Positions 43,786 to 59,929 of a stretch of DNA of 59,973 nucleotides are shown one piece after another; the stretch's first letter is position 1; the number at the start of each line of letters is the position of its first letter. The translations under genes and the position numbers were made by a program. This DNA is from a virus. The DNA is taken from IMG/VR virus record IMGVR_UViG_3300045988_079322; one strand, given 5' to 3'. The notes beneath the pieces were generated by a model. That model had not been told where the DNA came from. It worked only from the letters and a program-made list of their open reading frames with translations, and made no database searches.

Positions 43786-43802
43786 CTCCTTTTTATACTC
43801 AT

Positions 43803-43831
43803 ATAATAACAAAAAAAAACTAGATTGTCAA
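43803..43831 (-). promoter_or_regulatory. Late-operon promoter: TTGACA-17-TATTAT with TGn
   Basis: Reverse complement of 43826-43831 is TTGACA and of 43803-43808 is TATTAT, with a 17-nt spacer. Confidence 0.5.
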
Positions 43832-45376: not shown

Positions 45377-45575
45377 TTATTGTTATCTTAGATTGCATCA
45401 ATAGTATGATCCAATTAGATGCGATGATTCATGCGAATATGCAAAAGTAATAAAAGAAAACAAAGAGTTAAAGTAGAAGATCGAGGAATTAAAAACTCAA
45501 CACACTTTATTTGAAAAATAAAATAAGACAATTATTTAATTTTGCCCAACGGCATTTTTATAAAAGGAGGCCGCG

Positions 45576-46762: not shown

Positions 46763-46785
46763 GGGATATTTTTGCCCTAACTGTG

Positions 46786-46825
46786 GAGAAAAGATGAAAG
46801 GTTAAAAGTTTAGCCTTTCATCTTT
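46786..46825 (+). terminator. Intrinsic terminator after the macrodomain/PTH2 operon
   Basis: GATGAAAGG-n12-CCTTTCATC followed by TTTTTTT. Confidence 0.6.
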
Positions 46826-47068: not shown

Positions 47069-47098
47069 AAGAGAGAGAAAGAAATTTCAAAAAAACTA

Positions 47099-47127
47099 TT
47101 GACAAGTGAGCGTTTTGGTGGTAAACT
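47099..47127 (+). promoter_or_regulatory. Promoter: TTGACA-17-TAAACT
   Basis: Consensus -35, 17-nt spacer ending GTGG. Confidence 0.5.
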
Positions 47128-47194
47128 GGACTTGTCCAGTAGGACAGAGACAAAAGCACAGCACTTTGAAAATTAAAAAATTTCAAAAAAGGTA

Positions 47195-47223
47195 TTGACA
47201 AACTGCTAAAGGTTTGATACAAT
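47195..47223 (+). promoter_or_regulatory. Promoter: TTGACAAACT-17-TACAAT (class A consensus)
   Basis: TTGACA at 47195, TACAAT at 47218. Confidence 0.6.
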
Positions 47224-47276
47224 ACAGACAGAACAAAAGAGAATCACACCACAAAAAGAAAGGGAGTCAAAAGAGT

Positions 47277-48610: not shown

Positions 48611-48687
48611 AGGAATAATACTTGACTGGCAATCTACACAAAGATTGCCAGTCATTTTTATGCACTTTTCCATATTGACTTTTCGCC

Positions 48688-48720
48688 GGGCCGCCAGCGT
48701 GCGCCGCGGCCCGAATTTTT
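48688..48720 (+). terminator. Cassette copy 1: GC-rich hairpin terminator
   Basis: GGGCCGC-n11-GCGGCCC followed by AATTTTT. Confidence 0.5.
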
Positions 48721-48795
48721 ATTTATTCGGCAATTTCAACAATTATATGACCGAAAGTTTGTGCAATTCGACGAAAGTTTTTCTCCCGAAATTAC

Positions 48796-48824
48796 TTGAC
48801 ATTCCTTTTCCCATGTGTTATTAT
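48796..48824 (+). promoter_or_regulatory. Cassette copy 1 promoter: TTGACA-17-TATTAT with TGT
   Basis: Preceded by TTGTGCAA at 48749-48756. Confidence 0.55.
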
Positions 48825-48877
48825 ATACTTGTCCAAAGGGACAGGTCACAAAAAGAATTTGAAAGGAAGTAAAAAAA

Positions 48878-49117
48878 ATGACTTTAGATATGGTTGCTTG
48901 GTTACTTTCTCCGCTTGCAGAAGATACTATGTTCTTTGACGGGGAGGGATTCGAAATTATCAATAAGAATACCCAAGCTCATTACCATGAATTACCTGAT
49001 GGTAGAATAACTCTGGGAGGAGACGTAATCGAGGTATCTAAGGAATGGGTTCTGGGACTTCAGGTAACCGACATTGAGGCAAGAGATAACAATTTAATCA
49101 TTTATGTAGATGGTTAA
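48878..49117 (+). CDS. Hypothetical protein, 79 aa
   Basis: Intact, after GGAAGT Shine-Dalgarno-like sequence. Confidence 0.45.
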   Translation: MTLDMVAWLLSPLAEDTMFFDGEGFEIINKNTQAHYHELPDGRITLGGDVIEVSKEWVLGLQVTDIEARDNNLIIYVDG

Positions 49118-49179
49118 GAAAACTTGCGGGAGTGGAGGCCACAAACCTCTACTCCCCACGATAAAAAGGAGGAATAAAT

Positions 49180-49395
49180 ATGATTGCTGTTATTAAATTT
49201 GAAAGTGCAGAAAAGTCTGTGGAGTTTGGAAACACAATTTGTAATATGGCTGGCTGGTGTTTGGGTCATCCTCTCAATTCCAATGCTACCGGCTGTGTTT
49301 GTACACTTGATTTTAATACCGGCGACAAGCAAGATAGAGCCTTATATAATTATCTGCTAAAAATTGGAGCTTTCGAGGAGGTGGAACTAAAGTGA
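49180..49395 (+). CDS. Hypothetical protein, 71 aa
   Basis: AAAGGAGG Shine-Dalgarno. Confidence 0.45.
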   Translation: MIAVIKFESAEKSVEFGNTICNMAGWCLGHPLNSNATGCVCTLDFNTGDKQDRALYNYLLKIGAFEEVELK

Positions 49396-49510
49396 GTATT
49401 GAGCGTTTACCGCATACATATCCTATCGGTTCCACTGTTTGGACAAATAAGGGATATGGCACAGTTCTACTTCACATTGGTAAATACCATCTGGTTTGGC
49501 TACAGAGATT

Positions 49511-49546
49511 AGGGCTGGCGTAATGCCGGCCCTATTGATTTTTTCA
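49511..49546 (+). terminator. Intrinsic terminator
   Basis: AGGGCTGGC-GTAAT-GCCGGCCCT followed by ATTGATTTTTT. Confidence 0.5.
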
Positions 49547-49597
49547 AAAAAATATATTATAATAATTATAGAAAAATAAAGAAAGGAGTTTTTCTAA

Positions 49598-49714
49598 TGA
49601 CCTTAGAAGTGCTGAAAGCACTCGCGGTTATTTTGGAGTTCTGTTTGAACTAGGATTCTTGCAAGAATTGTCCTATGTCTCAGTTCTGCCAGAAAATGCC
49701 TTGCGAGTGGTAAA
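49598..49714 (+). CDS. 38-aa Cys-rich micro-protein with one in-frame TAG
   Basis: AAAGGAG Shine-Dalgarno then ATG 49598. ...EFCLN-TAG-DSCKNCPMSQFCQKMPCEW, TAA stop. Confidence 0.3.
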
Positions 49715-49801
49715 TGTTCCTTCCGATTGTTCTAAATCGGCGATTCCCGTGATGGAGTCGTTTTTCGCACGAGCCTAGGTCACTAGAATTTATTTATCAA
49801 A

Positions 49802-50035
49802 ATGCAAGAAACTACTTTCTCTCGCAAATTGGATTCAAGTGGTAGAATTATGATTCCGATTCGTTTGCGTGAACAAATGGGACTTACTTCCGGTTAGGAA
49901 TACTATTTCACTACTATGGTAAAAGATGGCAGAAAATACATCTGCATTGACTGCGGATCGGTTGATTCCTCACTTGAAGAAGCTATGAAAATTATCCAAG
50001 CAAACGGATTAAAGATTGTTGAAAATGCCGATTGA
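49802..50035 (+). CDS. AbrB/MazE-family (swapped-hairpin) DNA-binding protein, 77 aa, interrupted by one in-frame TAG
   Basis: RKLDSSGRIMIPIRLREQMGLTSG-TAG-EYYFTTMVKDGRKYI matches the AbrB/MazE consensus (GRVVIPIELRRxLGIxEKDxLEI). TGA stop. Confidence 0.5.
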
Positions 50036-50079
50036 CTTCTCAAAAGAAAGGGAGTTGTTGGTATGCAGAAATTAATGAC

Positions 50080-50110
50080 CTCCTGAAATTCAGGAGGTTC
50101 TTTTTTTATT
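50080..50110 (+). terminator. Intrinsic terminator
   Basis: CCTCCTGAAATTCAGGAGG followed by TTCTTTTTTT. Confidence 0.6.
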
Positions 50111-50115
50111 CGTTC

Positions 50116-50152
50116 GCCCGGCCGTGCACCACAGGCGCGGCCGGAATTTTTT
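50116..50152 (+). terminator. Cassette copy 2: GC-rich hairpin
   Basis: CCGGCCG-n13-CGGCCGG followed by AATTTTTT. Confidence 0.5.
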
Positions 50153-50165
50153 ATCAAGAGGCAAT

Positions 50166-50197
50166 TTGCACAATTTTAGGCTCGAATTGTTGTGCAA
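50166..50197. promoter_or_regulatory. Cassette copy 2 operator: TTGCACAA-N16-TTGTGCAA perfect inverted repeat
   Basis: TTGCACAA at 50166-50173 and TTGTGCAA at 50190-50197. Confidence 0.55.
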
Positions 50198-50226
50198 TCT
50201 GATGGAAGATTTTTTCCCAAAATCGC

Positions 50227-50255
50227 TTGACTTTCTATCTGTTATCTGTTATACT
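50227..50255 (+). promoter_or_regulatory. Cassette copy 2 promoter: TTGACT-17-TATACT, followed by the conserved leader ATCATCAAGAGGGGAGAAC
   Basis: 17-nt spacer. The leader 19-mer at 50260-50278 is identical to 53034-53052. Confidence 0.55.
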
Positions 50256-50308
50256 TGTATCATCAAGAGGGGAGAACAAAAGCCCTCGAAACAAAAGGAG
50301 AATGAGTT

Positions 50309-50542
50309 ATGTATCTGGTAATGGCTGACAGTAGAGAAAAGATTATCGGCGTTTCTGATACTGAAACTGGCGCACGCCATGCGGGATGGGACTGGCTCAA
50401 GGCCCAGTATTCCGAAAGCGAGTGGAGCCAAATTCTGGAAGATATGGACTATGAGAATGAAGGGGACTTGCGGCATGACCTTCTCATGGGCGCATATTGG
50501 GAAGATTTCGATATGGAGATTATCGAGGTTAAGAGGGTATAA
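50309..50542 (+). CDS. Hypothetical acidic protein, 77 aa
   Basis: AAAAGGAG Shine-Dalgarno. Confidence 0.45.
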   Translation: MYLVMADSREKIIGVSDTETGARHAGWDWLKAQYSESEWSQILEDMDYENEGDLRHDLLMGAYWEDFDMEIIEVKRV

Positions 50543-50571
50543 ACCCTCTTAACCAGAAAAGGAGTATATAT

Positions 50572-50724
50572 ATGACTACCTTCACAATGATTGTTTTGAT
50601 TGCGTTTGTGGCCTGCCTTGCATGGCAGTTAATGGCGGCTGCTCAAAAGAGCTGTATTCGGCTTGAAATCATGTTTGCCGCAGAAATTCTAATGTTCGCA
50701 TATTTGGCAAAAAATTTGATGTAA
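50572..50724 (+). CDS. 50-aa hydrophobic micro-protein (single transmembrane)
   Basis: AAAAGGAG Shine-Dalgarno then ATG 50572 (MTTFTMIVLIAFVACLAWQLMAA...). TAA at 50722-50724. Confidence 0.4.
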   Translation: MTTFTMIVLIAFVACLAWQLMAAAQKSCIRLEIMFAAEILMFAYLAKNLM

Positions 50725-50728
50725 AGGG

Positions 50729-50757
50729 TTGACAAACCGCTTAAACAGTGGTATAAT
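50729..50757 (+). promoter_or_regulatory. Class A promoter: TTGACAAACC-17-TATAAT (ends GTGGTATAAT)
   Basis: Consensus hexamers, 17-nt spacer. Confidence 0.6.
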
Positions 50758-50808
50758 CAATAATGTAAAGAGAAGGAAAACTCATTAAACCAGAAAGGAA
50801 ATATTGCT

Positions 50809-51039
50809 ATGTATAGAATGACTGAGCAGGATAGACAGGGGATTATTCTTCTGCATAAGACCATGGAGGAGTTCTGCCCAGGAGAAGCAGCACAGGCAAT
50901 GCTCCAGTCTTTGGGAAAATTCCTGCGGATCGGCATGTGTACTCCCGATGACGCGGCCGATATTATCAAGGGTATTTTCGATGAGGAAGCCGATAAGACA
51001 GTTGATGAAATGACTATGATGGATTTACTTTCCTTGTAA
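50809..51039 (+). CDS. Hypothetical protein, 76 aa
   Basis: Intact ORF after GAAAGGAAA. Confidence 0.45.
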   Translation: MYRMTEQDRQGIILLHKTMEEFCPGEAAQAMLQSLGKFLRIGMCTPDDAADIIKGIFDEEADKTVDEMTMMDLLSL

Positions 51040-51047
51040 AAAAGGGG

Positions 51048-51076
51048 TTGACAAACTGCCCCTTCTGTGGTACAAT
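51048..51076 (+). promoter_or_regulatory. Class A promoter: TTGACAAACT-17-TACAAT
   Basis: TTGACA at 51048, GTGGTACAAT at 51067-51076. Confidence 0.6.
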
Positions 51077-51136
51077 AAGACTATGGAAGGGGCAGCCCCC
51101 CAAAAATAAATTAAAATAAGAAAGGGAGTTTTAGAA

Positions 51137-51535
51137 ATGCGTGTTACTAAGAGGATTGAAGCCTATATCAATGATGAGGTCAACAAGATTGCGAACGCCA
51201 AGCGAGAGGAAATCAGAGCCAAGTATGCGGACGCTATGAAAGAGTTTGAGGATTTCATCGAGGAAGGCCGAAAAGAGATTGAGGCGCTGAATACAAGGAT
51301 TATTGAGCGCGCCACAGCGAAGGGATATAAGCTCCGCCGCTATTATGACCAGGAGTGTGCCAAGTCAAATATGTGCAGTCTTTACAACCCCATCAACCAA
51401 ACGATGGATGAAGAGCTGTCCACTGTGACAAAGTGGGTAGAGGAAAATGCAAGTCTGATCTGCGTCAAGCTGGAAATGGGCGGCGACATGAAAACTCTGT
51501 CTACTCTGCTTGAAGAACTGCGCAAGGAGTTTTAA
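51137..51535 (+). CDS. Hypothetical protein, 132 aa, predicted helical
   Basis: GGGAG Shine-Dalgarno, TAA stop. Confidence 0.45.
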   Translation: MRVTKRIEAYINDEVNKIANAKREEIRAKYADAMKEFEDFIEEGRKEIEALNTRIIERATAKGYKLRRYYDQECAKSNMCSLYNPINQTMDEELSTVTKWVEENASLICVKLEMGGDMKTLSTLLEELRKEF

Positions 51536-51586
51536 GGAAGGAGGTGGAGAGGGCAAGGCTATTGCTTGCCCTCTCTAATAAAAAAA

Positions 51587-52045
51587 ATGAAAGCAACTGG
51601 CATTGTGCGCCGCGTTGATGATCTCGGCCGGGTAGTAATTCCTAAGGAAATTCGTCGGAATATGAATATTCGGGAGGGCGACCCGCTAGAAATCTTTATT
51701 GAAGATGGCGGAGTGGTTTTCAAGAAATATTCTCTACTATCTTCTTTTGCTCCTCAGGCCGCACATATTCAAAAAGTTTTGAGCATTAACGGCATTTCCG
51801 CGTCGGTTTTTGATAATTCAAGTCTTTTGTGCGGTCCTCGCCCCTTCGGAATGTCAAAGACCCCGGACGAATGGCTCAATATTCGTAATTGGGGTACTGA
51901 ATGGAAGGGAAAGTCGTTGTTTGTTACTCCTATTATCGCAGAAGGTGAGGTAATCGGCTTTATTTGCTATAAAAACGATAAAGAATCGGCGCATGATATG
52001 ATTCGACTTTCTGCGCAATTTCTAGCTCAATTTGCAGAAAACTAA
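51587..52045 (+). CDS. SpoVT/AbrB-type transcriptional regulator, 152 aa: N-terminal swapped-hairpin DNA-binding domain plus a C-terminal (GAF-like?) domain
   Basis: MKATGIVRRVDDLGRVVIPKEIRRNMNIREGDPLEIFIEDGGVVFKKY closely matches the AbrB N-terminus. ATG 51587 follows a hairpin at 51551-51571. Confidence 0.6.
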   Translation: MKATGIVRRVDDLGRVVIPKEIRRNMNIREGDPLEIFIEDGGVVFKKYSLLSSFAPQAAHIQKVLSINGISASVFDNSSLLCGPRPFGMSKTPDEWLNIRNWGTEWKGKSLFVTPIIAEGEVIGFICYKNDKESAHDMIRLSAQFLAQFAEN

Positions 52046-52068
52046 GAGGGCTTCGGCCCTCTTTTTTT
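52045..52068 (+). terminator. Intrinsic terminator
   Basis: AGAGGGC-TTCG-GCCCTCT followed by TTTTTT. Confidence 0.6.
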
Positions 52069-52084
52069 ATATCAAAATTTCGAC

Positions 52085-52115
52085 GGCGCGCTGACGCTCA
52101 CAGCGCGCCGAGTTT
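52085..52115 (+). terminator. Cassette copy 3: GC-rich hairpin
   Basis: GGCGCGCTG-n7-CAGCGCGCC followed by GAGTTTTCTT. Confidence 0.5.
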
Positions 52116-52130
52116 TCTTGTTTGTAAGTT

Positions 52131-52162
52131 CTACACAATTTTTGACTTGAAATCTTGTGCAA
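52131..52162. promoter_or_regulatory. Cassette copy 3 operator: CTACACAA-N16-TTGTGCAA (left half degenerate)
   Basis: Same spacing as copies 2 and 4. Confidence 0.4.
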
Positions 52163-52171
52163 TTTGCCATC

Positions 52172-52200
52172 TTGAAATTATCCTTAAATTATGGTATTAT
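52172..52200 (+). promoter_or_regulatory. Cassette copy 3 promoter: TTGAAA-17-TATTAT with TGG
   Basis: The segment GCCATCTTGAAATTATCC...TATGGTATTATTA is nearly identical to copy 4. Confidence 0.55.
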
Positions 52201-52227
52201 TAGTACAGAAAGAAGGAGGGACACTAA

Positions 52228-52452
52228 ATGAAACCTTCAAAGTTTATTCGGCCTAATGAGTGTTTAACTGTGGCTGAAATCTACCGCCGCCAATTTGGTG
52301 GTACTACCACCCCAGAGAATTATGGGGTCTATATGCAAGCTATTCTTTTGCGCGACCCTCTAATTTATGTGGATTATACGTCAATGCCTTATAAGGTATA
52401 TCGGCATAAAAATTTCTTTGAAAAACTTGTTGACAAGATAGGCAACAGGTAG
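52228..52452 (+). CDS. Hypothetical protein, 74 aa. Its TAG terminator lies inside the next promoter.
   Basis: AGGAGGG Shine-Dalgarno. The stop is TAG 52450-52452. Read-through would add 12 residues, up to TAA 52487-52489. Confidence 0.45.
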   Translation: MKPSKFIRPNECLTVAEIYRRQFGGTTTPENYGVYMQAILLRDPLIYVDYTSMPYKVYRHKNFFEKLVDKIGNR

Positions 52453-52458
52453 TATAAT
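52430..52458 (+). promoter_or_regulatory. Promoter: TTGACA-17-TATAAT overlapping the 3' end of the preceding gene
   Basis: TTGACA at 52430, TATAAT at 52453. Confidence 0.55.
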
Positions 52459-52480
52459 AAAACAAAAGGAGGTTATATAT

Positions 52481-52945
52481 ATGATAACTAAAAAAATGCT
52501 CTGCTTTGATATGGATGGGACTATTGCAGATCTGTATGCAGTCCCTAACTGGCTCGAAAAACTCCGCAAGGGAGACCCCAGCCCATTCCAAGACGCCGCC
52601 CCTATGTGGGATATGAAGGCCCTTCGAAATGCGCTTCTAAACGCAATCAATAAAGGGTGGGAGGTTAGAGTTATTACATGGTTGCCCCCTGAAAGCCCCC
52701 CTGAATATAAGAAAGCAGTCACAGCCGCCAAAAAGGAATGGCTTGCAAGGCATAAATTTCCGGCCCATAAATGCCATTGTGTGGCGTATGGAACAACTAA
52801 AGCTAAATGCGTATTCCGCAGTTTTTATGAACCGCCGTTCATTCTCTTTGATGATAACGACAAAATTAGAAACGGCTGGCATTTAGGGGATACTGTAGAC
52901 CCCCAAACTACAAACATTATTGAATATATCAACAATCTGGACTAA
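52481..52945 (+). CDS. HAD-superfamily 5'(3')-deoxyribonucleotidase-like protein (NT5C family), 154 aa
   Basis: HAD motif I CFDMDGTIADL at the N-terminus. ILFDDNDKI resembles a C-terminal Asp motif. Overall size and layout match NT5C-type dNMP nucleotidases. Confidence 0.55.
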   Translation: MITKKMLCFDMDGTIADLYAVPNWLEKLRKGDPSPFQDAAPMWDMKALRNALLNAINKGWEVRVITWLPPESPPEYKKAVTAAKKEWLARHKFPAHKCHCVAYGTTKAKCVFRSFYEPPFILFDDNDKIRNGWHLGDTVDPQTTNIIEYINNLD

Positions 52946-53002
52946 ATAAAAGGGGCGGGTGAAATCCCCGCCCCATATCTGGAAAATACGTAAAAAAGTT
53001 CT

Positions 53003-53030
53003 TGACAATCTCACTACATTGTGATATAAT
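53003..53030 (+). promoter_or_regulatory. Promoter: TTGACA-16-TATAAT, followed by the conserved leader ATCATCAAGAGGGGAGAAC
   Basis: Leader at 53034-53052. Confidence 0.55.
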
Positions 53031-53079
53031 TTAATCATCAAGAGGGGAGAACCCTCATAAAAGAAAGGGAGTTTTTGTT

Positions 53080-53228
53080 ATGATGAATTTCTACTTTAAG
53101 ACTGCGGCGGGCCATGTGTTCGTGGGTGTGGGTAAGGATGTTGACCGCGCCCGTTCTGACGCCAAGCGCAAGGCTGGTTCCCTTTGGTCGCCTTCGGCCA
53201 AGTGCTTTAAGGTCGGGAACGCCATTTA
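53080..53228 (+). CDS. Micro-protein, 48 aa, basic
   Basis: AAAGGGAG Shine-Dalgarno then ATG 53080. TAA at 53226-53228. Confidence 0.35.
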
Positions 53229-53260
53229 AGGCGTTCCCCGATAGGAAGGAGGTCTCAAAA

Positions 53261-53452
53261 ATGTTTGCTTTTCTTGTTGCTGTCCTCGCGGTTCTTGCCA
53301 CCTGCGTAATTTCTTTCTTCGGCACAGCCCTGCTGATCTGGCTCATCTGTTGGGCGTTCGCTCTCACTTTCTCATGGAAAATCACTTTCGGCATCTGGAT
53401 TATCATTTGCATCCTCAGAAGCATTTTCAAAACCGTAATTCATAGGGATTAA
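53261..53452 (+). CDS. 63-aa hydrophobic membrane micro-protein
   Basis: AGGAAGGAGG Shine-Dalgarno then ATG 53261 (MFAFLVAVLAVLATCVISFFGTALLIWLICWAF...). The ORF-track call 53114..53452 is an N-terminally over-extended version. Confidence 0.4.
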   Translation: MFAFLVAVLAVLATCVISFFGTALLIWLICWAFALTFSWKITFGIWIIICILRSIFKTVIHRD

Positions 53453-53454
53453 AT

Positions 53455-53490
53455 AAAAGCGGGGTGAAAATCCCCGCTTTTATTTTTTTT
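53455..53490 (+). terminator. Intrinsic terminator
   Basis: AAAGCGGGG-TGAAAAT-CCCCGCTTT followed by a T-run. Confidence 0.6.
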
Positions 53491-53497
53491 ATAACTT

Positions 53498-53535
53498 GGC
53501 CGGCCCGCGCACAAGCGCCGCGGGCCGAATTTTTC
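53498..53535 (+). terminator. Cassette copy 4: GC-rich hairpin
   Basis: CGGCCCGCG-n9-CGCGGGCCG followed by AATTTTTCTTC. Confidence 0.5.
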
Positions 53536-53548
53536 TTCTATTGTAATG

Positions 53549-53580
53549 TTGCACAATTTTCAAGCAGAAATCTTGTGCAA
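53549..53580. promoter_or_regulatory. Cassette copy 4 operator: TTGCACAA-N16-TTGTGCAA perfect inverted repeat
   Basis: Coordinates 53549-53556 and 53573-53580. Confidence 0.55.
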
Positions 53581-53589
53581 AATGCCATC

Positions 53590-53618
53590 TTGCAATTATC
53601 CCGAGACTATGGTATTAT
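53590..53618 (+). promoter_or_regulatory. Cassette copy 4 promoter: TTGCAA-17-TATTAT with TGG
   Basis: About 130 nt of transcribed leader with no convincing ORF before the next promoter. Confidence 0.5.
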
Positions 53619-53753
53619 TATCATGTCAGGAGGGAGAGGCCAAGAAATCAAGAGGTCGCGAACTCTTAGAAAGTAGAGGAAGCAAAGAGAAAATAACTAA
53701 ATTCCGATTAGCTATCGGGAGGATTAAGTTAAAAAGTCTTTCCTTTTTCCCTC

Positions 53754-53782
53754 TTGACACCAAGCATTAAATATGCTATAAT
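53754..53782 (+). promoter_or_regulatory. Promoter: TTGACA-17-TATAAT, followed by the leader TCATCAAGAGAAGAAAGG
   Basis: TTGACA at 53754, TATAAT at 53777. Confidence 0.6.
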
Positions 53783-53816
53783 AATATCATCAAGAGAAGA
53801 AAGGACTTGATAGATT

Positions 53817-54641
53817 ATGATTGATAAACGCCGACATTATGTGCTGGTGGTCGATACAGAAACCGCCAACACATTGACCGAGACTATCCCCGCTGAAATC
53901 GGTGAGAACGGGGAAATCATTACCCCGGAGCGCATCCGTATGGATATGTCAAATGTTTTGGTGTATGACTGCGGCTGGGCGGTCGTAGACACCAAGGGCA
54001 ATATTTATGAAACCGCAAGTTTTGTAAATCGGGACATTTTCAATGACGAGCGGGATTTAATGCGGACGGCCTATTATAACTGGAAAATCCCCCGGTATGT
54101 GGAGGAATTGCGTGCCGGCAGTCGCAAGATGGCTACTACCTATGAAATCCGTCAGGCCATGCTGGATACTATCGAGCGATACGGCATTAAGGAGGTCGCC
54201 GCATATAACGCCCGCTTTGATGATAACGCCCTTCGGGTTACTCAGCGTTGGGTCACTTGTTCCAAGTTCCGGTATTGGTTCCCCTTTGACAGCGTGGAAA
54301 TTTGGGACATTATGAAAATGACACAAGATGTCATTTGTCAGATGCCCACCTATAAAAAGTTCTGTGAAGAACATGGGTATATGCAGGCTAACGGCGTTCC
54401 CCGCAAGACTGCGGAAATCGTATGGCGGTTTATCTCCGGCAATACCGATTTTGAGGAAAGCCACACGGGGCTGGAAGATGTTCTGATTGAAGCGGAAATC
54501 ATGTGGTATTGTATGCGCCAGCATAAGCCCATGAGAAAGGCTCTGTATGAGAACAAGCGGGAGTTTCCGCCCATGACAGATTTTCAGCGTCAGCTTTCCG
54601 CAAGTCTGCGGCAAATTCCGACAATCCGGGTCGGGGCTTAA
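53817..54641 (+). CDS. DEDDh (DnaQ-like) 3'-5' exonuclease, 274 aa
   Basis: Exo I VVDTETAN, Exo II AYNARFDDNAL, Exo III ESHTGLEDV. Confidence 0.6.
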   Translation: MIDKRRHYVLVVDTETANTLTETIPAEIGENGEIITPERIRMDMSNVLVYDCGWAVVDTKGNIYETASFVNRDIFNDERDLMRTAYYNWKIPRYVEELRAGSRKMATTYEIRQAMLDTIERYGIKEVAAYNARFDDNALRVTQRWVTCSKFRYWFPFDSVEIWDIMKMTQDVICQMPTYKKFCEEHGYMQANGVPRKTAEIVWRFISGNTDFEESHTGLEDVLIEAEIMWYCMRQHKPMRKALYENKREFPPMTDFQRQLSASLRQIPTIRVGA

Positions 54642-54670
54642 TGCCCCGCCCGGTAGAAGGAGAAATAAAG

Positions 54671-54820
54671 ATGCTTCAAGGATTAAAAAATAAGGCTATC
54701 CGCTTTCTGCTTGAGCGGACGTGCCCGGATGTATTTACCATTAAGGCTATGCTTTCCAAAGTGACGCGGAAAGAGATGCAGTTTTATGTCGATCAATTCT
54801 ACTCAAAGAAAGAGGGTTAA
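54671..54820 (+). CDS. Micro-protein, 49 aa
   Basis: GAAGGAG Shine-Dalgarno then ATG 54671. TAA at 54818-54820. Confidence 0.3.
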   Translation: MLQGLKNKAIRFLLERTCPDVFTIKAMLSKVTRKEMQFYVDQFYSKKEG

Positions 54821-54822
54821 AT

Positions 54823-55005
54823 ATGAAAATAAAAACTGTATATACCTCTTCCCTTTGTCCAGATGCTGTTTTCATGGCGCTTGAAATTATCAAGCGTATG
54901 GGATGGTGTCATGATGAACCAGATGAAAATGGGGATATGTTGGTATCTATTCCCATTGAGGATGAACACTTGTTTGATTTTTTGGATAATTGTCTTTTTG
55001 GATAA
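54823..55005 (+). CDS. Hypothetical acidic protein, 60 aa
   Basis: Intact ORF. Confidence 0.4.
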   Translation: MKIKTVYTSSLCPDAVFMALEIIKRMGWCHDEPDENGDMLVSIPIEDEHLFDFLDNCLFG

Positions 55006-55009
55006 AATA

Positions 55010-55045
55010 AAGAGAGCTTCGGCTCTCTTTTTATTTTTTATTTTT
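55010..55045 (+). terminator. Intrinsic terminator
   Basis: AGAGAGC-TTCG-GCTCTCT followed by TTTTATTTTTT. Confidence 0.6.
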
Positions 55046-55048
55046 GGC

Positions 55049-55082
55049 GGGTCGCGCATGGGCGGCGCGACCCGAGTTTTTC
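55049..55082 (+). terminator. Cassette copy 5: GC-rich hairpin
   Basis: GGGTCGCGC-n7-GCGCGACCC followed by GAGTTTTTCTTT. Confidence 0.5.
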
Positions 55083-55092
55083 TTTGTAAATG

Positions 55093-55170
55093 TTGCACAA
55101 AAATTTCAGCCCCATTTTGTGTAAAATTCTGCACAAAAGCCCTATCCCAAAATTCTGATTTTTTGTGCAA
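55093..55170. promoter_or_regulatory. Cassette copy 5 operator cluster: TTGCACAA-N16-TTGTGTAA plus TGCACAAA and TTGTGCAA
   Basis: Half-sites at 55093, 55117, 55130 and 55163. Confidence 0.45.
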
Positions 55171-55178
55171 TTTGCCTA

Positions 55179-55207
55179 TTGCAATCTGCTTTCTGGTATG
55201 GTAAAAT
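55179..55207 (+). promoter_or_regulatory. Cassette copy 5 promoter: TTGCAA-17-TAAAAT
   Basis: 17-nt spacer, TGG at -15. Confidence 0.45.
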
Positions 55208-55277
55208 ACATTCAGAAAGTGAGAGAGACGAACGGCAGACAGCGACAGCGAACTTTCAAAAATCTTTCAAAAACCCC

Positions 55278-55306
55278 TTGACAAGCCCTTGTGAGTGTGC
55301 TATAAT
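55278..55306 (+). promoter_or_regulatory. Tandem promoter 2 of 4: TTGACA-17-TATAAT
   Basis: Consensus hexamers. Confidence 0.6.
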
Positions 55307-55354
55307 AAGTACAGAAAACAAGGCAAGGAACCTTGAAAAGTGAATAAAAAGGGC

Positions 55355-55383
55355 TTGACAAACTCTCCAAAGTGTGTTACACT
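55355..55383 (+). promoter_or_regulatory. Tandem promoter 3 of 4: TTGACAAACT-17-TACACT
   Basis: Class A -35 context. Confidence 0.5.
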
Positions 55384-55450
55384 ATAAGGGGAACGAGAGA
55401 GGGCAAACAAGTAAAGGGCAAAAGTTCTTGAAAAAAGTTTGAAAAACCTC

Positions 55451-55479
55451 TTGACAAACTCCTAATAGTGTGGTACAAT
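55451..55479 (+). promoter_or_regulatory. Tandem promoter 4 of 4: TTGACAAACT-17-TACAAT
   Basis: Identical -35 context to the promoters at 47195 and 51048. Confidence 0.6.
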
Positions 55480-55528
55480 ATAATCAAAGGACAAGGACAG
55501 TCCTAAAAACCAGAAAGGATGTATCATT

Positions 55529-55930
55529 ATGAGTGAGAAGAAAATCCGCATTACCAAGGCCCAGCGTTTTGAGGACATTAAGGCCCTCTTGACCGGCGGC
55601 GAGGTAAAGCATGGCACGACCATGGAGATTGCCATGACTGTTATCGACCATGAGTTGGAGCTGTTGCGGAAGAAGAATAGCTCCGGGGGAGATAAGAAGC
55701 TGACTCCGACTCAGCAGGAGAACGAGAGCCTTAAGGAGCAGATTATGGAGTATCTTGCCGGTCTGCCCGAGGACACCGACGGCGTGACCTGTACCGACAT
55801 TTTCAAGTCTGTGCCTTCTCTGGCCGCTTTCTCCACTCAGAAGGCCGCCGCCCTTGTGCGGATGCTCAAGCTGGACGGCCGTGTGACCTGTCAGGAGAAG
55901 AAGGGCAAGTCTCTCTTTAAGATGGCGTAA
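55529..55930 (+). CDS. Hypothetical early protein, 133 aa, driven by four stacked promoters; possible winged-helix C-terminus
   Basis: GAAAGGA Shine-Dalgarno. Intact. Confidence 0.5.
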   Translation: MSEKKIRITKAQRFEDIKALLTGGEVKHGTTMEIAMTVIDHELELLRKKNSSGGDKKLTPTQQENESLKEQIMEYLAGLPEDTDGVTCTDIFKSVPSLAAFSTQKAAALVRMLKLDGRVTCQEKKGKSLFKMA

Positions 55931-55938
55931 CCCCGTAT

Positions 55939-55963
55939 AGGGCGGGGTGAAAATCCCCGCCCT
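55939..55963 (+). terminator. Hairpin AGGGCGGGG-TGAAAAT-CCCCGCCCT (weak U-tract)
   Basis: Same loop TGAAAAT as the terminator at 53455. Confidence 0.4.
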
Positions 55964-56068
55964 ACTCTATCTTAGGGGGGTGAGACTATATCAAGCCGTA
56001 TCACTGACGCCGAGAGGTTATCGAGATATAAGCCTCTCCAACTGACACCAGAGGAGGAGGCGGAGCTA

Positions 56069-56386
56069 TTGGCCTATGACAAGGCGGTGGAAGCTGGCGA
56101 AAAAACGCAATACGATTTATCGCCCGATAAAGCGAAAATCGCGCAGAAATTCGCCCATGCTGGCACAAGAAAAACCCCTACCGCCTACAAATTTACACCA
56201 CGGCAACGCAAGCCAAACGCAACTAAAGGCGGCATAATCGCAGAGCTGGCGGACTTTTTGGAAAAAAATAGTCAATTCTCGATTGTTGACCTTGCCATAA
56301 CAAACAAGGAACGCCAAATTGCGTTTTCTATCGGTGGGGATAGTTTCGAGTTAACGCTTGTGCAAAAGCGTAAACCGAAAAAATAA
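56069..56386 (+). CDS. Hypothetical basic protein, 105 aa (TTG start)
   Basis: GAGGAGGAGG Shine-Dalgarno 8 nt before TTG 56069. Confidence 0.45.
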   Translation: MAYDKAVEAGEKTQYDLSPDKAKIAQKFAHAGTRKTPTAYKFTPRQRKPNATKGGIIAELADFLEKNSQFSIVDLAITNKERQIAFSIGGDSFELTLVQKRKPKK

Positions 56387-56463
56387 CGGGGTAGGGCTGG
56401 CCTACCCCAGCCCTACCAGAAAAGAGGTATTCCATAGTTAGCACACAGACACGGGAAAAGGAG

Positions 56464-56793
56464 TTTCTATACGTCGGGCATTATGTAGACGTAAAGGGGC
56501 GCTATATTCTCAAGATTGGCACGACAAACGACCTTGAAAGACGTGCCGCCGAGCATACAAGGAATTACAAACGAGCGAGAGACTATACTATGCCTACGGA
56601 TAGTGCTTTTTCCTATGATTGGTATATCCGGTTATCTAAGTATAATACCCTTCGATATGAGGACTTGAACCGGACTTTATGGCAAAATATGGGAATTGGA
56701 CATTTTATCAGAAATGACCGTTTTCTCTGTGATACGCCCCCGCGCATGGTAACAGTCATTATCCGCAAGGCATACCCCGTTATTCTGAATTAA
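56464..56793 (+). CDS. GIY-YIG nuclease-domain protein (T5orf172-like). No canonical start codon upstream of the domain; possible non-AUG start, frameshift or pseudogene.
   Basis: Motif LYVGHYVDVKGRYILKIGTTNDLERRAAEH (GIY...YIG...R...H) starts right after GAAAAGGAG. The first in-frame ATG is at 56590, after the motif. Confidence 0.4.
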   Translation, partial: FLYVGHYVDVKGRYILKIGTTNDLERRAAEHTRNYKRARDYTMPTDSAFSYDWYIRLSKYNTLRYEDLNRTLWQNMGIGHFIRNDRFLCDTPPRMVTVIIRKAYPVILN

Positions 56794-56798
56794 GAAGA

Positions 56799-56827
56799 AC
56801 CACCCCAGAAATGGGGTGGTTTTTTTG
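56799..56827 (+). terminator. Intrinsic terminator
   Basis: ACCACCCCA-GAAA-TGGGGTGGT followed by TTTTTTT. Confidence 0.6.
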
Positions 56828-56837
56828 TCCCAATATG

Positions 56838-56875
56838 CGGGCGGTCCGCTTGCGTGCGCCGCGGACCGAGTTTTT
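56838..56875 (+). terminator. Cassette copy 6: GC-rich hairpin
   Basis: CGGTCCGC-n11-GCGGACCG followed by AGTTTTTCTTC. Confidence 0.5.
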
Positions 56876-56929
56876 CTTCTATTTGCATTTTAGATAATTT
56901 TCGCTCGATTTTTTGTGCAAAATGACTAC

Positions 56930-56958
56930 TTGACATTCTCCTAAAAATGTGGTATTAT
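56930..56958 (+). promoter_or_regulatory. Cassette copy 6 promoter: TTGACA-17-TATTAT, with TTGTGCAA at 56913-56920 just upstream
   Basis: Ends ...TGTGGTATTATTA, as in copies 3 and 4. Confidence 0.55.
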
Positions 56959-56984
56959 TATCTCAACAAAGGAGGTCAAAGAGA

Positions 56985-57437
56985 ATGGAGAGTTTGAAGC
57001 AGTTTCGAGTTAGTTACAAGGTAACTTATCACTGTTGGGGCTATAAAGGAATTTTCCGCAGAGAGGCTTATAGATTTTCAGTCACGTTTTACAATGACCC
57101 TATGGAAACTCTATCCTATATTAACGCCAGAACTGAAAAAGAAGCTATTGAAATAGCAGAAACCTATATCAAAAAGCATATTGAAAGATATGTTGAGCAA
57201 TCGGAGAAAAATCAAGAAACCGGCGATTATATGATTTTGGGCGGGAATACTCCTCCCGATGGAAAATTCAAAATGTCAGATAAAATCTATTTTATCTCTG
57301 GATATGAATATGAACTTGTTTCTTGTAAAATGGTTTGCGATTGGTCAAAAGAAAGAGTTGAAAGAGCGGCTAAAGAGCTTACTATGGAACAATTCAAGCA
57401 AATTTTTAATGAAATTCCAACCGAGATTTTCAAATAA
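56985..57437 (+). CDS. Hypothetical protein, 150 aa
   Basis: AAAGGAGG Shine-Dalgarno then ATG 56985. Confidence 0.5.
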   Translation: MESLKQFRVSYKVTYHCWGYKGIFRREAYRFSVTFYNDPMETLSYINARTEKEAIEIAETYIKKHIERYVEQSEKNQETGDYMILGGNTPPDGKFKMSDKIYFISGYEYELVSCKMVCDWSKERVERAAKELTMEQFKQIFNEIPTEIFK

Positions 57438-57454
57438 AGAAGGGAGATTTTAAG

Positions 57455-57718
57455 ATGGATAATTCTGGATTCAATATTGCGGAAATGAATGATGAAACTT
57501 TGCAATATCTTCTTTCCGCTTGTGAAAAAGAAATGCAAGCAAGAAAGAATAAAGATAAAGAGAGAAAATGGAAGGCTGTCAGAACTGCTATTGCTGACTA
57601 TGTAGAAACATATGGCGATATTGTTTGTTCCTTGGCATATGAGGATGACTTTAGAATAAATCTCCACAATATTGATTTTGATACCATCGGAGTTTTTGAA
57701 GAAAGAGATAATTACTAA
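57455..57718 (+). CDS. Hypothetical protein, 87 aa
   Basis: GAAGGGAG Shine-Dalgarno. Confidence 0.45.
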   Translation: MDNSGFNIAEMNDETLQYLLSACEKEMQARKNKDKERKWKAVRTAIADYVETYGDIVCSLAYEDDFRINLHNIDFDTIGVFEERDNY

Positions 57719-57723
57719 AATAA

Positions 57724-57750
57724 AGAGGGCTTCGGCCCTCTTTTTATTTT
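57724..57750 (+). terminator. Intrinsic terminator
   Basis: AGAGGGC-TTCG-GCCCTCT followed by TTTTATTTT. Same stem as the terminator at 52045. Confidence 0.6.
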
Positions 57751-57768
57751 CATTTTTATTAAACTTGG

Positions 57769-57800
57769 CGGGCCGGTCGCGGGCGACTCGGCCCGAATTT
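57769..57800 (+). terminator. Cassette copy 7 (partial): GC-rich hairpin without an attached promoter
   Basis: GGGCCG-n13-CGGCCC followed by GAATTT. Confidence 0.4.
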
Positions 57801-57802
57801 CC

Positions 57803-58404
57803 CCGATCGGACCATAGCGCAAAATTTTCATAGCAAGTTGGCCATAACGCAACTTAGTCTAGAATCTCCCGAAATTATACCATAATCCGATCGGTTTTCT
57901 ATCTTACTCCGATCAGTCCAGCAATAGCGGCTTTCTCGTCCATTTTTTATAATAAAAAAATTCAAAATTGTCAAGTGTTCATAAGACTAATATTATCCCC
58001 TATACAGCTAACAATAGCAAAGATGTTGCTATGAAAAACAAATACCACCGAGAGATTTTTCTGCGGTACCGATCGGTTTAACGAGATTTTATAATAAAAA
58101 TAGCTAGAAAATTCTACTTTTAACTAGGTAAACCGATCGGTCCGCAGGTTTTTCCTCTTGTTTTTCTCTTAATATAGCGAAAATTCTCTAAAAATCTAGC
58201 AAAAACGCACATTTTTCTAATAAAATTACTTAAAAATTAGCAAAATTTGCCTCATTTTCAGCAAATCTTCTTGATGTTCACCCTTTCTATACTTTTATAG
58301 ATACAATTAAAAAGACTTATTCTCTAGCTAAGAATTTTCTAGTCGATGCCTCAATCAGAGAAGTTATTTTAGAATAAAAGATCTTTAAGCTAGGGCCGAT
58401 CGGT
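57803..58404. repeat. AT-rich noncoding region carrying six copies of the palindrome CCGATCGG (four as ACCGATCGGT), plus a 20-bp inverted repeat pair flanking a 55-bp AT-rich spacer. Candidate origin or control region.
   Basis: Copies at 57803, 57887, 57909 (variant CCGATCAG), 58068, 58132 and 58395. CTGCGGTACCGATCGGTTTA (58061) opposes TAAACCGATCGGTCCGCAG (58129). No ORF of 40 aa or more. Confidence 0.55.
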
Positions 58405-58468
58405 TGCAATTTATAAAATAATATTATATAATATAAATATAAAAGGAAAGAAAAGAGGAATATATTCC

Positions 58469-58942
58469 ATGGATTATACTAATATGATTAAATGTGCTCT
58501 TGATGGCGGTGCGTCTCTCGACGATATTGCTAAGGAGTTTACTGATGCTCTAAATGTCTTTAATAAGCAGAATCAGGTTCGGAAGGCTCGTCAGCAAGCT
58601 TTGGATGAAATTGAGTGCGACTTTCTAAATGCTGTTGATGATGAGCATCTTGATGCAGAGCATATCGGACAGCTTGCAGTTCTTATTTATGCTCCTTCTC
58701 ACCCTGAGTGGGATGCTGATACTATCAATAAATATGCAGAGGCTATCACTGAGACTGCTCGTATTTCTGCCCGAATTGTCGGGATGAATAATATCAATGA
58801 TGCACTTGCAGCGACAGAGGAAGAGCTTGATAAGATAATTGAGAAGGCGATTCAGGAGATGCGAAATGAATCGGTCTCCGTTTCCATCAAGAGCAACAAT
58901 GATGAAGATGTGGTAGCTAAGTTCTTGAGAGGGCTTAGATAA
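58469..58942 (+). CDS. Hypothetical acidic protein, 157 aa
   Basis: AAAGAGGAA Shine-Dalgarno. Intact. Confidence 0.5.
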   Translation: MDYTNMIKCALDGGASLDDIAKEFTDALNVFNKQNQVRKARQQALDEIECDFLNAVDDEHLDAEHIGQLAVLIYAPSHPEWDADTINKYAEAITETARISARIVGMNNINDALAATEEELDKIIEKAIQEMRNESVSVSIKSNNDEDVVAKFLRGLR

Positions 58943-58944
58943 AA

Positions 58945-58974
58945 GAGAGGTAGAGATACCTCTCTTTTTTTATT
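58945..58974 (+). terminator. Intrinsic terminator
   Basis: AGAGAGGTA-GAGA-TACCTCTCT followed by TTTTTTT. Confidence 0.65.
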
Positions 58975-59079
58975 GCTATTAAACAAGAGGAAAGAAGTAG
59001 AAGAATCGCGGAAGCCTAGGTTTACGATCGTTTTGACGAGTGTTGTGATGGTTGTACCTAGACCCGATCGGCACCCAAC

Positions 59080-59403: not shown

Positions 59404-59430
59404 GGTTATCCTCCCTATCCATCGCTTTCT

Positions 59431-59718
59431 CACAAATACATGAAAAAGTCGCCGTTGTCTTTTCTTTGTTATCTTATATATGTTATATTTATGGTATTGT
59501 CAGAATACCATGAAATGGATTTTTATTTACTTTCATGGTATTGTCAGAATACCATGTCATAGTATTGTTGGAATACCATGAAATAAATCTTTCAATTAAA
59601 ATCATGTATTTGTCAGAATACTATGAAATTTTCATAACTTTCCAACAAATACATGATTTCATAGGTTTCTCACAATACTATGAAATTTTCATGGTATTCT
59701 CAGAAATACATGAAAATT
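59431..59718. repeat. Iteron or operator array with two repeat families: the palindromic unit ATGGTATTGTCAGAATACCATGAAAT (about 5 copies) and CAnAAATACATGA (3 copies)
   Basis: Copies at 59491, 59535, 59561, 59606 and 59682, plus 59431, 59644 and 59701. Lies between two minus-strand small genes. Confidence 0.55.
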
Positions 59719-59929
59719 AAAACGAAAATTTTTCTCCGTTGGGAGCGACATAATTATATTTATCCTCGTCAATAATTTTAGGAACTTCGTAAAAATCGTA
59801 ATACCCCTTCTTCTCAAGAGGAATCAAATACCCTTTTTCTACCAATCCTTCTATTGCATTTGTATATTTAGCTTTCTTTATACCCAACTCCCTCTCAATA
59901 ATAGTAGGGCCAAAATCATAATCTGTCAA
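59717..59929 (-). CDS. Small winged-helix-like DNA-binding protein, 70 aa
   Basis: KAKYTNAIEGLVEKGYLIPLEKKGYY resembles a recognition helix plus wing. In-frame TGA at 59936 bounds the start. TAA at 59717. Confidence 0.4.
   Translation of the reverse strand: MTDYDFGPTIIERELGIKKAKYTNAIEGLVEKGYLIPLEKKGYYDFYEVPKIIDEDKYNYVAPNGEKFSF

Follow-up and report, generated by a model that had tools for sequence, protein, structure and literature searches.

A stretch of 59,973 nucleotides of viral DNA (IMG/VR record IMGVR_UViG_3300045988_079322), called the window below in its full length, belongs to an uncultured, TAG-recoded, siphovirus-like gut phage and carries an intergenic element that recurs seven times, always on the + strand, between 48.69 and 57.80 kb (the region 48.4-58.4 kb was read and scanned for repeats). 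We refer to this element as the cassette. In copies 1-6 the order of the components is constant: an ordinary intrinsic terminator, a 27-nt hairpin with its tail, a two-part operator of the form TTGCACAA-N16-TTGTGCAA and a predicted sigma70-type promoter. An earlier sequence-only reading had described seven copies with one layout made of a covarying hairpin, an inverted repeat and a promoter. The seven copies are all where it placed them, and on the + strand; the layout itself holds for copies 1-6 but not for copy 7, which has no TTGCACAA operator and shares only the hairpin and a TCCCGAAA motif with the others. The components are the following.

48623-48654, + strand: ordinary intrinsic terminator of copy 1 (terminator scan, tail score -4.90).
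48687-48724, + strand: copy 1 hairpin (48687-48713) and its AATTTTTATTT tail (folding; covariance model, 50.9 bits).
48735-48766, + strand: copy 1 operator, a degenerate TTCAACAA, N16, then TTGTGCAA at 48759-48766 (half-site scan).
48784-48824, + strand: copy 1 TCCCGAAA motif (48784-48791) and predicted promoter TTGACA-17-TATTAT (48796-48824; promoter and motif scan).
50077-50099, + strand: ordinary terminator of copy 2 (terminator scan).
50118-50155, + strand: copy 2 hairpin (50118-50144) and tail (folding, covariance model).
50166-50197, + strand: copy 2 operator, a perfect TTGCACAA-N16-TTGTGCAA (50166-50173 and 50190-50197; half-site scan).
50215-50255, + strand: copy 2 TCCCAAAA motif and predicted promoter TTGACT-17-TATACT (50227-50255; promoter and motif scan).
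52044-52063, + strand: ordinary terminator of copy 3 (terminator scan).
52084-52121, + strand: copy 3 hairpin (52084-52110) and AGTTTTCTTGT tail (folding, covariance model).
52131-52200, + strand: copy 3 operator (CTACACAA, N16, TTGTGCAA at 52155-52162) and predicted promoter TTGAAA-17-TATTAT (52172-52200).
53451-53485, + strand: ordinary terminator of copy 4 (terminator scan).
53501-53538, + strand: copy 4 hairpin (53501-53527) and AATTTTTCTTC tail (folding, covariance model).
53549-53618, + strand: copy 4 perfect operator (53549-53556 and 53573-53580) and predicted promoter TTGCAA-17-TATTAT (53590-53618).
53599-53606, + strand: TCCCGAGA inside the promoter spacer of copy 4 (motif scan).
55009-55030, + strand: ordinary terminator of copy 5 (terminator scan).
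55048-55085, + strand: copy 5 hairpin (55048-55074) and AGTTTTTCTTT tail (folding; covariance model, 55.6 bits).
55093-55124, + strand: N16 pair of the doubled operator of copy 5, TTGCACAA at 55093-55100 and TTGTGTAA at 55117-55124.
55129-55170, + strand: N26 pair of the doubled operator of copy 5, CTGCACAA at 55129-55136 and TTGTGCAA at 55163-55170.
55179-55207, + strand: copy 5 predicted promoter TTGCAA-17-TAAAAT, operator and promoter together spanning 55093-55207.
56798-56821, + strand: ordinary terminator of copy 6 (stem assigned to the - strand by the scan, with the T run after it on the + strand).
56842-56879, + strand: copy 6 hairpin (56842-56868) and AGTTTTTCTTC tail (folding, covariance model).
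56890-56958, + strand: copy 6 operator (a degenerate TTAGATAA, then TTGTGCAA at 56913-56920) and predicted promoter TTGACA-17-TATTAT (56930-56958).
57722-57743, + strand: ordinary terminator of copy 7 (terminator scan).
57769-57894, + strand: copy 7, the terminal variant, with hairpin 57769-57795, tail AATTTCC, and CCGATCGG at 57803-57810 and 57887-57894.

An ordinary terminator thus precedes not just most of the hairpins, as the sequence-only reading had it, but all seven, at 18-32 nt from the end of the terminator stem to the first base of the hairpin. The inverted repeat announced as perfect in copies 2 and 4 is so. In copy 7 the TCCCGAAA motif (57867-57874) lies 6 nt before CATAAT and the sequence downstream differs from that of copies 1-6; the hairpin of this copy is nearly invariant among relatives. 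Between cassettes lie units of two to six small genes each, mostly without Pfam matches, together with stronger consensus promoters that have no cassette. The earlier proposal that every small gene forms its own insulated unit is not compatible with this arrangement.

The seven copies are 60-77% identical to one another and the genes that flank them are unrelated. A covariance model of the hairpin, with flanks of 10 and 13 nt, gives exactly seven + strand matches at E<=1e-9 in the 60-kb window, all between 48.7 and 57.8 kb; the sole further match is the antisense of copy 6, with an E value of about 1.

The 274-aa exonuclease-like protein encoded at 53817-54641 served as seed and retrieved 22 IMG/VR loci with 76-98% identity. 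A profile of the same protein gave 246 IMG/VR relatives, of which 80 loci were kept, with identity down to 47%. The first 22 loci contain 129 matches to the model and the 58 further ones 207, i.e. 336 in total, and all of them (336/336) are on the early-gene strand. The search of relatives with a covariance model, which had been suggested as a check, found the cassette in every relative examined, so that absence from relatives, one of the refuting conditions named with the sequence-only reading, does not apply. Hits throughout the relatives indicate that it is an old, conserved feature of the clade. Neither the 10-kb region (megablast) nor one cassette (distant blastn) matched any of 50,697 GenBank phages. 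In phAss-1, which represents the closest described phage group, the model gave a single weak match (E=0.02) in the 96 of 136 kb scanned, so that the element is not shared with phAss-1; the phAss-1 paper mentions no promoters, terminators, hairpins or regulatory repeats. When 185,579 genomes were searched for exact matches to the terminal hairpin, a single one was returned, on a phage-sized contig of 147.8 kb (L139, CALCFD010000051.1). This contig is binned into a metagenome-assembled genome of an uncultured Eubacterium, which is a weak hint at the host.

Each of the seven hairpins is exactly 27 nt long and 81-93% G+C, with the pattern CGGnnCG..CGnnCCG and a perfect stem of 8-10 bp. The predicted RNA folding energies range from -17.8 to -22.3 kcal/mol. 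The tail is A(A/G)TTT, followed in copies 3-6 by TTCTT. The sequence-only reading had noted that the stems differ between copies and yet stay complementary, and this is borne out on a larger scale: among 44 distinct hairpins seven of the ten stem pairs vary on both sides, and none of 500 shuffles attains the observed covariation score. Since this set had been pre-selected for pairing of the outer seven pairs, we added a test that is blind to pairing. IMG/VR was scanned with the pattern CGGNNCG-N13-CGNNCCGARTTTT, which leaves stem positions 4/24 and 5/23 free. Watson-Crick pairs occupy both free positions in 59 of the 71 distinct 27-mers recovered, against an expectation of about 1 in 16, and each of the four pair types is represented. 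Compensatory changes are also seen between orthologous hairpins, e.g. CGGT..ACCG in copy 6 of the window and CGGA..TCCG in the relative L003. The covariation of the stem is thus genuine and the structure is under selection.

Single mismatches in the stem are more often of the G.U type (24) than of the A.C type (9, p=0.014). This excess points to a fold formed by the sense strand (RNA or single-stranded + strand DNA) rather than to a symmetric duplex site or a cruciform. The hairpin was also considered as a palindrome in double-stranded DNA, i.e. a binding site for a dimer. This reading was rejected because the variable stem positions are complementary rather than conserved, and because of the same G.U bias.

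Across 124 distinct hairpins eight positions are near-invariant (C1, G3, C6, G7, C21, G22, C25 and G27), four loop positions (C12, G13, C16 and G17) are conserved at 65-85%, and the flanks are conserved as well (T at -4, G at -2, A at +1, T at +3 to +5). A scan that makes no assumption on length found 27 nt in 108 of 146 GC hairpins. By these measures the hairpin is more constrained than a generic terminator. Rfam gave no match at its gathering thresholds, and at E<=1 only chance matches far below threshold; no tRNAs were found. We regard the hairpin as a well-supported new structured motif, for which three molecular roles are still in contention: back-up terminator or insulator, protein-recognised RNA, and recombination site.

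The half-sites TTGTGCAA and TTGCACAA occur 13 times in the window for 1.7 expected. Copies 2 and 4 have a perfect operator; in copies 1, 3 and 6 its left arm is degenerate, and copy 5 has a doubled one. Over 182 distinct cassette contexts of the family the half-sites are spaced by N16, with a minor N26 class that is one helical turn longer. The right half-site lies 39 or 40 bp from the -10 box in 63 of 90 cases, and the remainder cluster at 49, 60 and 70 bp. The operator is thus placed at helical-turn steps and keeps to one side of the helix with respect to the -10 box. Taking transcription to start 7 nt after the -10 box, the coordinates put the centre of the right half-site near -49.5 in copies 3, 4 and 6, near -48.5 in copy 5 and near -69.5 in copies 1 and 2. 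In these respects the operator appears to behave like the site of a transcription factor. Two proteins with an AbrB/MazE/SpoVT-type fold are encoded between cassettes (49802-50035 and 51587-52045). A 77-aa protein weakly resembles the AbrB N-terminal domain; PDB sequence searches with a conserved 133-aa protein were uninformative. The two AbrB/SpoVT-fold proteins are candidates, and candidates only, for the factor that would bind the operator.

The predicted promoters of copies 1-6 conform to TTGAMA-17-TG-n-TATTAT/TATACT/TAAAAT, i.e. they have an extended -10 box, and match the consensus at 9-11 of 12 positions. A promoter is found downstream in 86% of the 182 contexts. For comparison, shuffled sequence gives 40 promoter-like and 13 terminator-like sites per 16 kb. 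A TCCCGAAA-like motif lies 13-14 nt before the start of the -10 box in 35 family members. At one mismatch TCCCGAAA is not enriched in the window (42 found, 43 expected), and its support therefore comes from its fixed position in relatives alone.

Other promoters and sites accompany the cassettes. In distant relatives (L055 9113, L095 6096, L125 8893(-) and similar) the hairpin lies between two convergent sigma70-like promoters, the opposite-strand one, CCATTATAC-N17-TGTCAA, being present in 16% of contexts. Both convergent transcripts of these relatives would start with the hairpin. The window copies have lost both promoters. The palindrome CCGATCGG has six exact copies at 57803-59071, within 1.3 kb past the last hairpin, for 0.23 expected in the window. 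In relatives it also occurs in the spacer of the promoter ahead of the terminal hairpin. These sites probably form a second operator system. Tandem near-consensus promoters (AAAAA..CTTGACAAAC-17-TGTGGTAYAAT), 77-96 nt apart, are found at 47079-47239 (two) and 55258-55495 (three). They precede genes that are kept in all relatives, and the number of repeats varies through indels of 172-183 nt. Downstream of the copy 4 and copy 5 promoters, the stretches up to the next gene, of about 200 nt (53620-53816) and about 320 nt (55208-55528), are without a convincing open reading frame (ORF); they are possible leaders or small RNAs.

The cassettes also delimit modules that come and go between genomes. 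In a gene-cluster map of 23 genomes the hairpin-delimited modules follow a broadly conserved order. A genome has or lacks a module as a whole, and the module to which a gene belongs can differ between genomes, as it does for g12 and the HAD-like g4. A block of 893 nt that runs from hairpin 6 to just before hairpin 7 is present in the window and missing from L001; the junction falls in a GGCGG microhomology at the 5' hairpin base. An equivalent difference of 882-883 nt separates L002 from L003-L006. L015 has a deletion of 1.5-1.7 kb with a 58-nt overlap in the operator zone, and other lineages show further indels from hairpin to hairpin or from operator to operator. At least four different cargo modules, each opening with its own hairpin, are found directly upstream of the terminal hairpin in different lineages. 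Four of the nine edges of blocks of at least 88% identity in the window fall in cassettes (50196, 53501, 56873 and 57767). Thus the 97.8%-identity block common to the window and L003-L006 ends at 50196, in the operator of copy 2, and the homology block with L001 begins at 53501, the first base of the copy 4 hairpin. Stand-alone consensus promoters likewise serve as crossover sites. We also observed related cargo genes of 203/204 aa, between a private and the terminal hairpin, in two distant lineages, L019 (13485-14244) and L156 (13594-14339), whose sister genomes are without them.

We propose, with moderate confidence, that the cassette is an insulated, factor-regulated promoter unit whose dispersed copies double as recombination substrates. 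Each cassette would mark the start of a small early transcription unit of two to six mostly orphan genes. Transcription of the unit upstream would end mainly at the ordinary terminator. In RNA that reads through it, the 27-nt hairpin and its A-R-U-U-U tail would fold on the sense strand and provide a second insulating stop or an RNA-end structure, and the downstream promoter would thereby be left under its own operator alone. A phage-encoded factor would bind TTGCACAA-N16/N26-TTGTGCAA and tune a promoter of sigma-A type, sub-consensus and with an extended -10 box. Five to seven diverged copies in direct orientation within about 10 kb would supply short homologies for module exchange, to which the microhomologies at the hairpin bases would add. 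Recombination or replication slippage at these places would delete, insert or swap hairpin-to-hairpin modules, in the manner of the promoter-early stem-loop (PeSL) elements of T4-type phages.

Two groups of results weigh against this explanation. The first concerns the hairpin as a terminator, whose strength was estimated by a TransTermHP-style tail score. The tails score -2.2 to -2.9 in the window (family median -2.59), whereas the ordinary terminators directly upstream score -4.1 to -5.0 (family median -5.29). The stem is excellent. The tail begins with A-R, with 3-6 T in its first 8 nt, and the U-tract often has just 3-5 U; tails such as AGTTTGCACAAG and AATTTCCCC carry only three. A lenient threshold is passed by 67% of the tails and a strict one by 12%. 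An ordinary terminator precedes 74% of the 182 contexts, at a median of 31 nt. A hairpin working as the terminator was predicted to have a stronger U-tract where this upstream terminator is missing; the tails are no stronger in these contexts, which speaks against that role. The fixed 27-nt length, the conserved loop and flanks and the invariant A-R-T-T-T tail are moreover features that no generic terminator should need. In about a quarter (24%) of the family contexts a strong predicted promoter stops 2-4 nt short of the hairpin, so that a transcript would have the hairpin at its 5' end and not at its 3' end. As an intrinsic terminator the hairpin thus looks marginal at best. Given a weak tail, a strong terminator upstream and the lack of compensation, it would be at most a back-up stop, and it may have another role.

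The second group concerns recombination. Among 208 indels of the hairpin zone in 81 genomes, 13 have both ends in the cassette core, for about 1% expected from a coverage of 9-11%; 7 have one end there and 188 neither. Breakpoints are enriched 1.6-fold in the core, the counts not being independent of phylogeny. Only a minority of the events take place at cassettes, and the effect is modest. The sequence-only reading had looked to cassettes as drivers of gene shuffling, with breakpoints at their edges. Some indels and identity breaks do lie exactly at these edges, as described above, but a role of the cassettes as the main driver is not supported.

In an alternative that we hold possible but rather unlikely, the hairpin is not a terminator but a structured RNA to which a specific protein of the phage or the host binds. 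Its role could be that of an endonucleolytic processing site or a stabiliser of RNA ends (of 5' ends in the relatives with the abutting promoter P1), comparable to the RNase III sites between T7 early genes, or that of a signal for an antitermination or termination factor, and the A-R-U-U-U tail would belong to the site of recognition or cleavage. Much of what is awkward for a terminator fits here: the fixed 27-nt geometry, the loop CpGs, flanks and ARTTT tail conserved in spite of extensive compensatory change in the stem, the bias to G.U that points to sense-strand folding, a U-tract both weak and redundant with the strong terminator just upstream, and the promoters whose -10 box ends so close to the hairpin that it would open the transcript. 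On the other hand the window hairpins would be transcribed only by read-through of a strong terminator, so that little substrate RNA is expected. For RNase III a stem of 8-10 bp is short, and a lower stem is missing from the window copies. The analysis identified no RNA-binding protein or nuclease as a candidate, and Rfam offers no match.

We consider it improbable that the hairpin is a structure-specific DNA site for recombination, single-stranded or cruciform, that defines mobile gene cassettes. Such a site would be like attC or the hairpins of IS200/IS605 and REP elements, and a dedicated enzyme would insert or excise a hairpin plus its cargo at the base of a resident hairpin. It is equally doubtful, in its more specific form, that the hairpin is a protein-recognised element for the excision and insertion of hairpin-plus-cargo modules, integron-like but with self-promoted cassettes and unrelated to attC. 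If true, this would explain the different cargo modules stacked exactly at the base of the terminal hairpin. There the junctions are at the 5' hairpin base (within the hairpin in L019), and the paired hairpins share little beyond CGG/CCG. The conservation of structure rather than sequence, the strict orientation, the related cargo family at this spot in L019 and L156, and the count of indels with a single end in the cassette core (0 in the first 23 genomes) also agree with it. But the crossovers vary: they are found at the hairpin base, in the loop, in the operator with overlaps of 58 and 93 nt, and in the leader. With crossovers at several places, general homologous recombination, microhomology-mediated recombination or replication slippage at hairpins is a better explanation than cleavage at one site. 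Deletions between the directly repeated hairpins, arising several times independently, would account for the pattern and require no insertion machinery. The G.U bias fits RNA equally well, and a 27-nt hairpin with a perfect stem is unlike attC. No integrase or HUH transposase, only the T5orf172-domain protein, was found among the proteins scanned, which are not every ORF of a window that is itself about half of the genome.

That the copies are a by-product of recent local duplication, or independent terminators and promoters alike by chance, is extremely unlikely: matches to both are common in AT-rich phage DNA, as the shuffled background shows, but this reading is refuted by the divergence of the copies and their unrelated cargo, by the specificity of the model (seven sites in 60 kb and 336 in 80 relatives, in one orientation), by covariation far above chance and by the quantised phasing of the operator.

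The window has other features of interest. ORFs of at least 150 aa cover 57 kb when TAG is read as sense and 19 kb under the standard code, and in-frame TAG occurs even in two early genes (49598-49714 and the AbrB-like gene at 49802-50035). The G+C content is not 30%, as the sequence-only reading had supposed: values per 2 kb of the window range from 32 to 46%, with the highest, 40-46%, in the cassette region. The step in G+C (0.32-0.36 to 0.40-0.46) is at about 46770-46820, at the start of the cassette region, and the same point is an identity break against L001-L006. The portal protein is 36% identical to that of the TAG-recoded gut phage phAss-1 and about 30% identical to those of large Enterococcus siphoviruses; it is closest to phAss-1, then to large siphoviruses of Enterococcus, Lactococcus and Bacillus. 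The late genes are on the minus strand (5.5-43.8 kb), behind a gene for a sigma-factor-like protein (42727-43827, minus strand; phrog_5767, with an HNH-like C-terminus). Between this first gene of the late block and the + strand early genes that it faces lies a divergent promoter region, at about 43.8 kb. Shortly before the cassette region, at 44193-46762 on the + strand, are genes for FolD-like (tetrahydrofolate dehydrogenase/cyclohydrolase), microbial-type PARG-like and PTH2 peptidyl-tRNA hydrolase proteins. The T5orf172-domain (GIY-YIG-like) protein is encoded at 56437-56793 (+ strand), in a gene that is present in all 23 genomes first compared and ends just before copy 6. At the other end of the window, a reverse transcriptase (phrog_1423, E=6e-83) adjoins a repeat-rich 620-aa surface-type protein (243-2102 and 3111-4337, + strand); the pair looks like a diversity-generating retroelement. 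A non-coding stretch at 59420-59720 is dense in direct and inverted repeats of 24-35 nt (CATGGTATTGTCAGAATACCATGAAAT and variants; families D7, D9, D11 and I1-I8), and looks like origin iterons or a packaging site.

On the preferred reading, that of an insulated and regulated promoter cassette, these results would carry the concept of promoter-terminator 'linker' cassettes beyond T4-type coliphages, to a large clade of gut phages that are uncultured and stop-codon-recoded. In this clade the exonuclease-like gene next to the cassettes is found on at least 246 IMG/VR contigs, for which Bacillota are the predicted hosts. The hairpin is a new searchable structured motif, with about 340 instances, strong covariation and no Rfam family. 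The helically phased operator marks early transcription units, and motif and operator together offer a way to annotate regulation in phages that are not available in culture. With indels that run precisely from hairpin to hairpin, it can be tested whether the hairpins do no more than supply microhomology or actively direct the exchange of modules, a question that has been open since the original work on PeSLs.

Several known systems resemble the cassette in part. Like intrinsic terminators and tandem insulators, the hairpin is a G+C-rich stem followed by an A/U-rich stretch, downstream of genes and on the sense strand, and a second terminator ahead of a regulated promoter is a classic insulation design. 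It differs from intrinsic terminators in that its U-tract comes after A-R, its tail scores are marginal, its length, flanks and loop are conserved, and it shows no compensation where the upstream terminator is missing. The RNase III processing hairpins of T7 and of the Bacillus phage SP82 lie between early genes, inside one long transcript, and are irregular helices of about 50-60 nt with an internal loop. They have in common with our hairpins that they are repeated, conserved, sense-strand structures in intercistronic spaces of the early region, but here the stem has 8-10 bp and lies between a terminator and a promoter.

The attC sites of integrons are imperfect palindromes of 57-141 nt with R and L boxes and extrahelical bases; they are recombined by IntI, and their cassettes are promoterless. 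As in attC, structure is conserved rather than sequence, the orientation is single and the unit of gain or loss is a cargo plus one hairpin. In contrast to attC, the hairpin has 27 nt and a perfect stem, the cassettes have their own promoters and the crossover points vary. The stoperators of cluster A mycobacteriophages are single asymmetric sites of 13-14 bp that block elongation. They too are many copies of one short regulator-binding site in intergenic spaces, whereas the operator described here is a two-part inverted repeat phased to a promoter.

The closest parallel is with the PeSLs. These are small intergenic motifs of T4-type phages that combine a strong sigma70-like early promoter with a transcription-terminating stem-loop. 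They cluster among the orphan genes of hyperplastic regions, undergo indels by recombination at several positions of the motif and form mini-circles; the stem-loop is part of the promoter motif, either between or overlapping the -35 and -10 boxes or in an AT-rich stretch just upstream (Arbiol et al. 2010, PMC2839356; Comeau et al. 2014, PMC4122927). In the literature we found no PeSL-like element outside T4-type phages that matches the cassette, and no paper that describes it. Cassette and PeSL have several features in common. Both are composite intergenic elements that join an early promoter of host-sigma type to a stable G+C-rich stem-loop. Both exist as many dispersed, co-oriented copies in a plastic region rich in orphan genes, and both bound indels between close relatives, with crossovers at several places that include the stem-loop. 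Whether the stem-loop doubles as a protein target has been raised for PeSLs as well. There are also differences. The cassette belongs to another phage lineage and host type, not to a T4-like myovirus, has promoters of sigma-A type and bears no sequence relationship to PeSLs. Its hairpin, fixed at 27 nt and with a conserved loop, lies 60-130 nt upstream of the -35 box and does not overlap the promoter. A separate ordinary terminator precedes the hairpin, a helically phased operator is added between hairpin and promoter, the TCCCGAAA motif is present and each unit has several genes. The resemblance to PeSLs that the sequence-only reading had noted is thus partly supported: the cassette works like a PeSL in its layout, its location and its association with indels, without being a member of the PeSL family.

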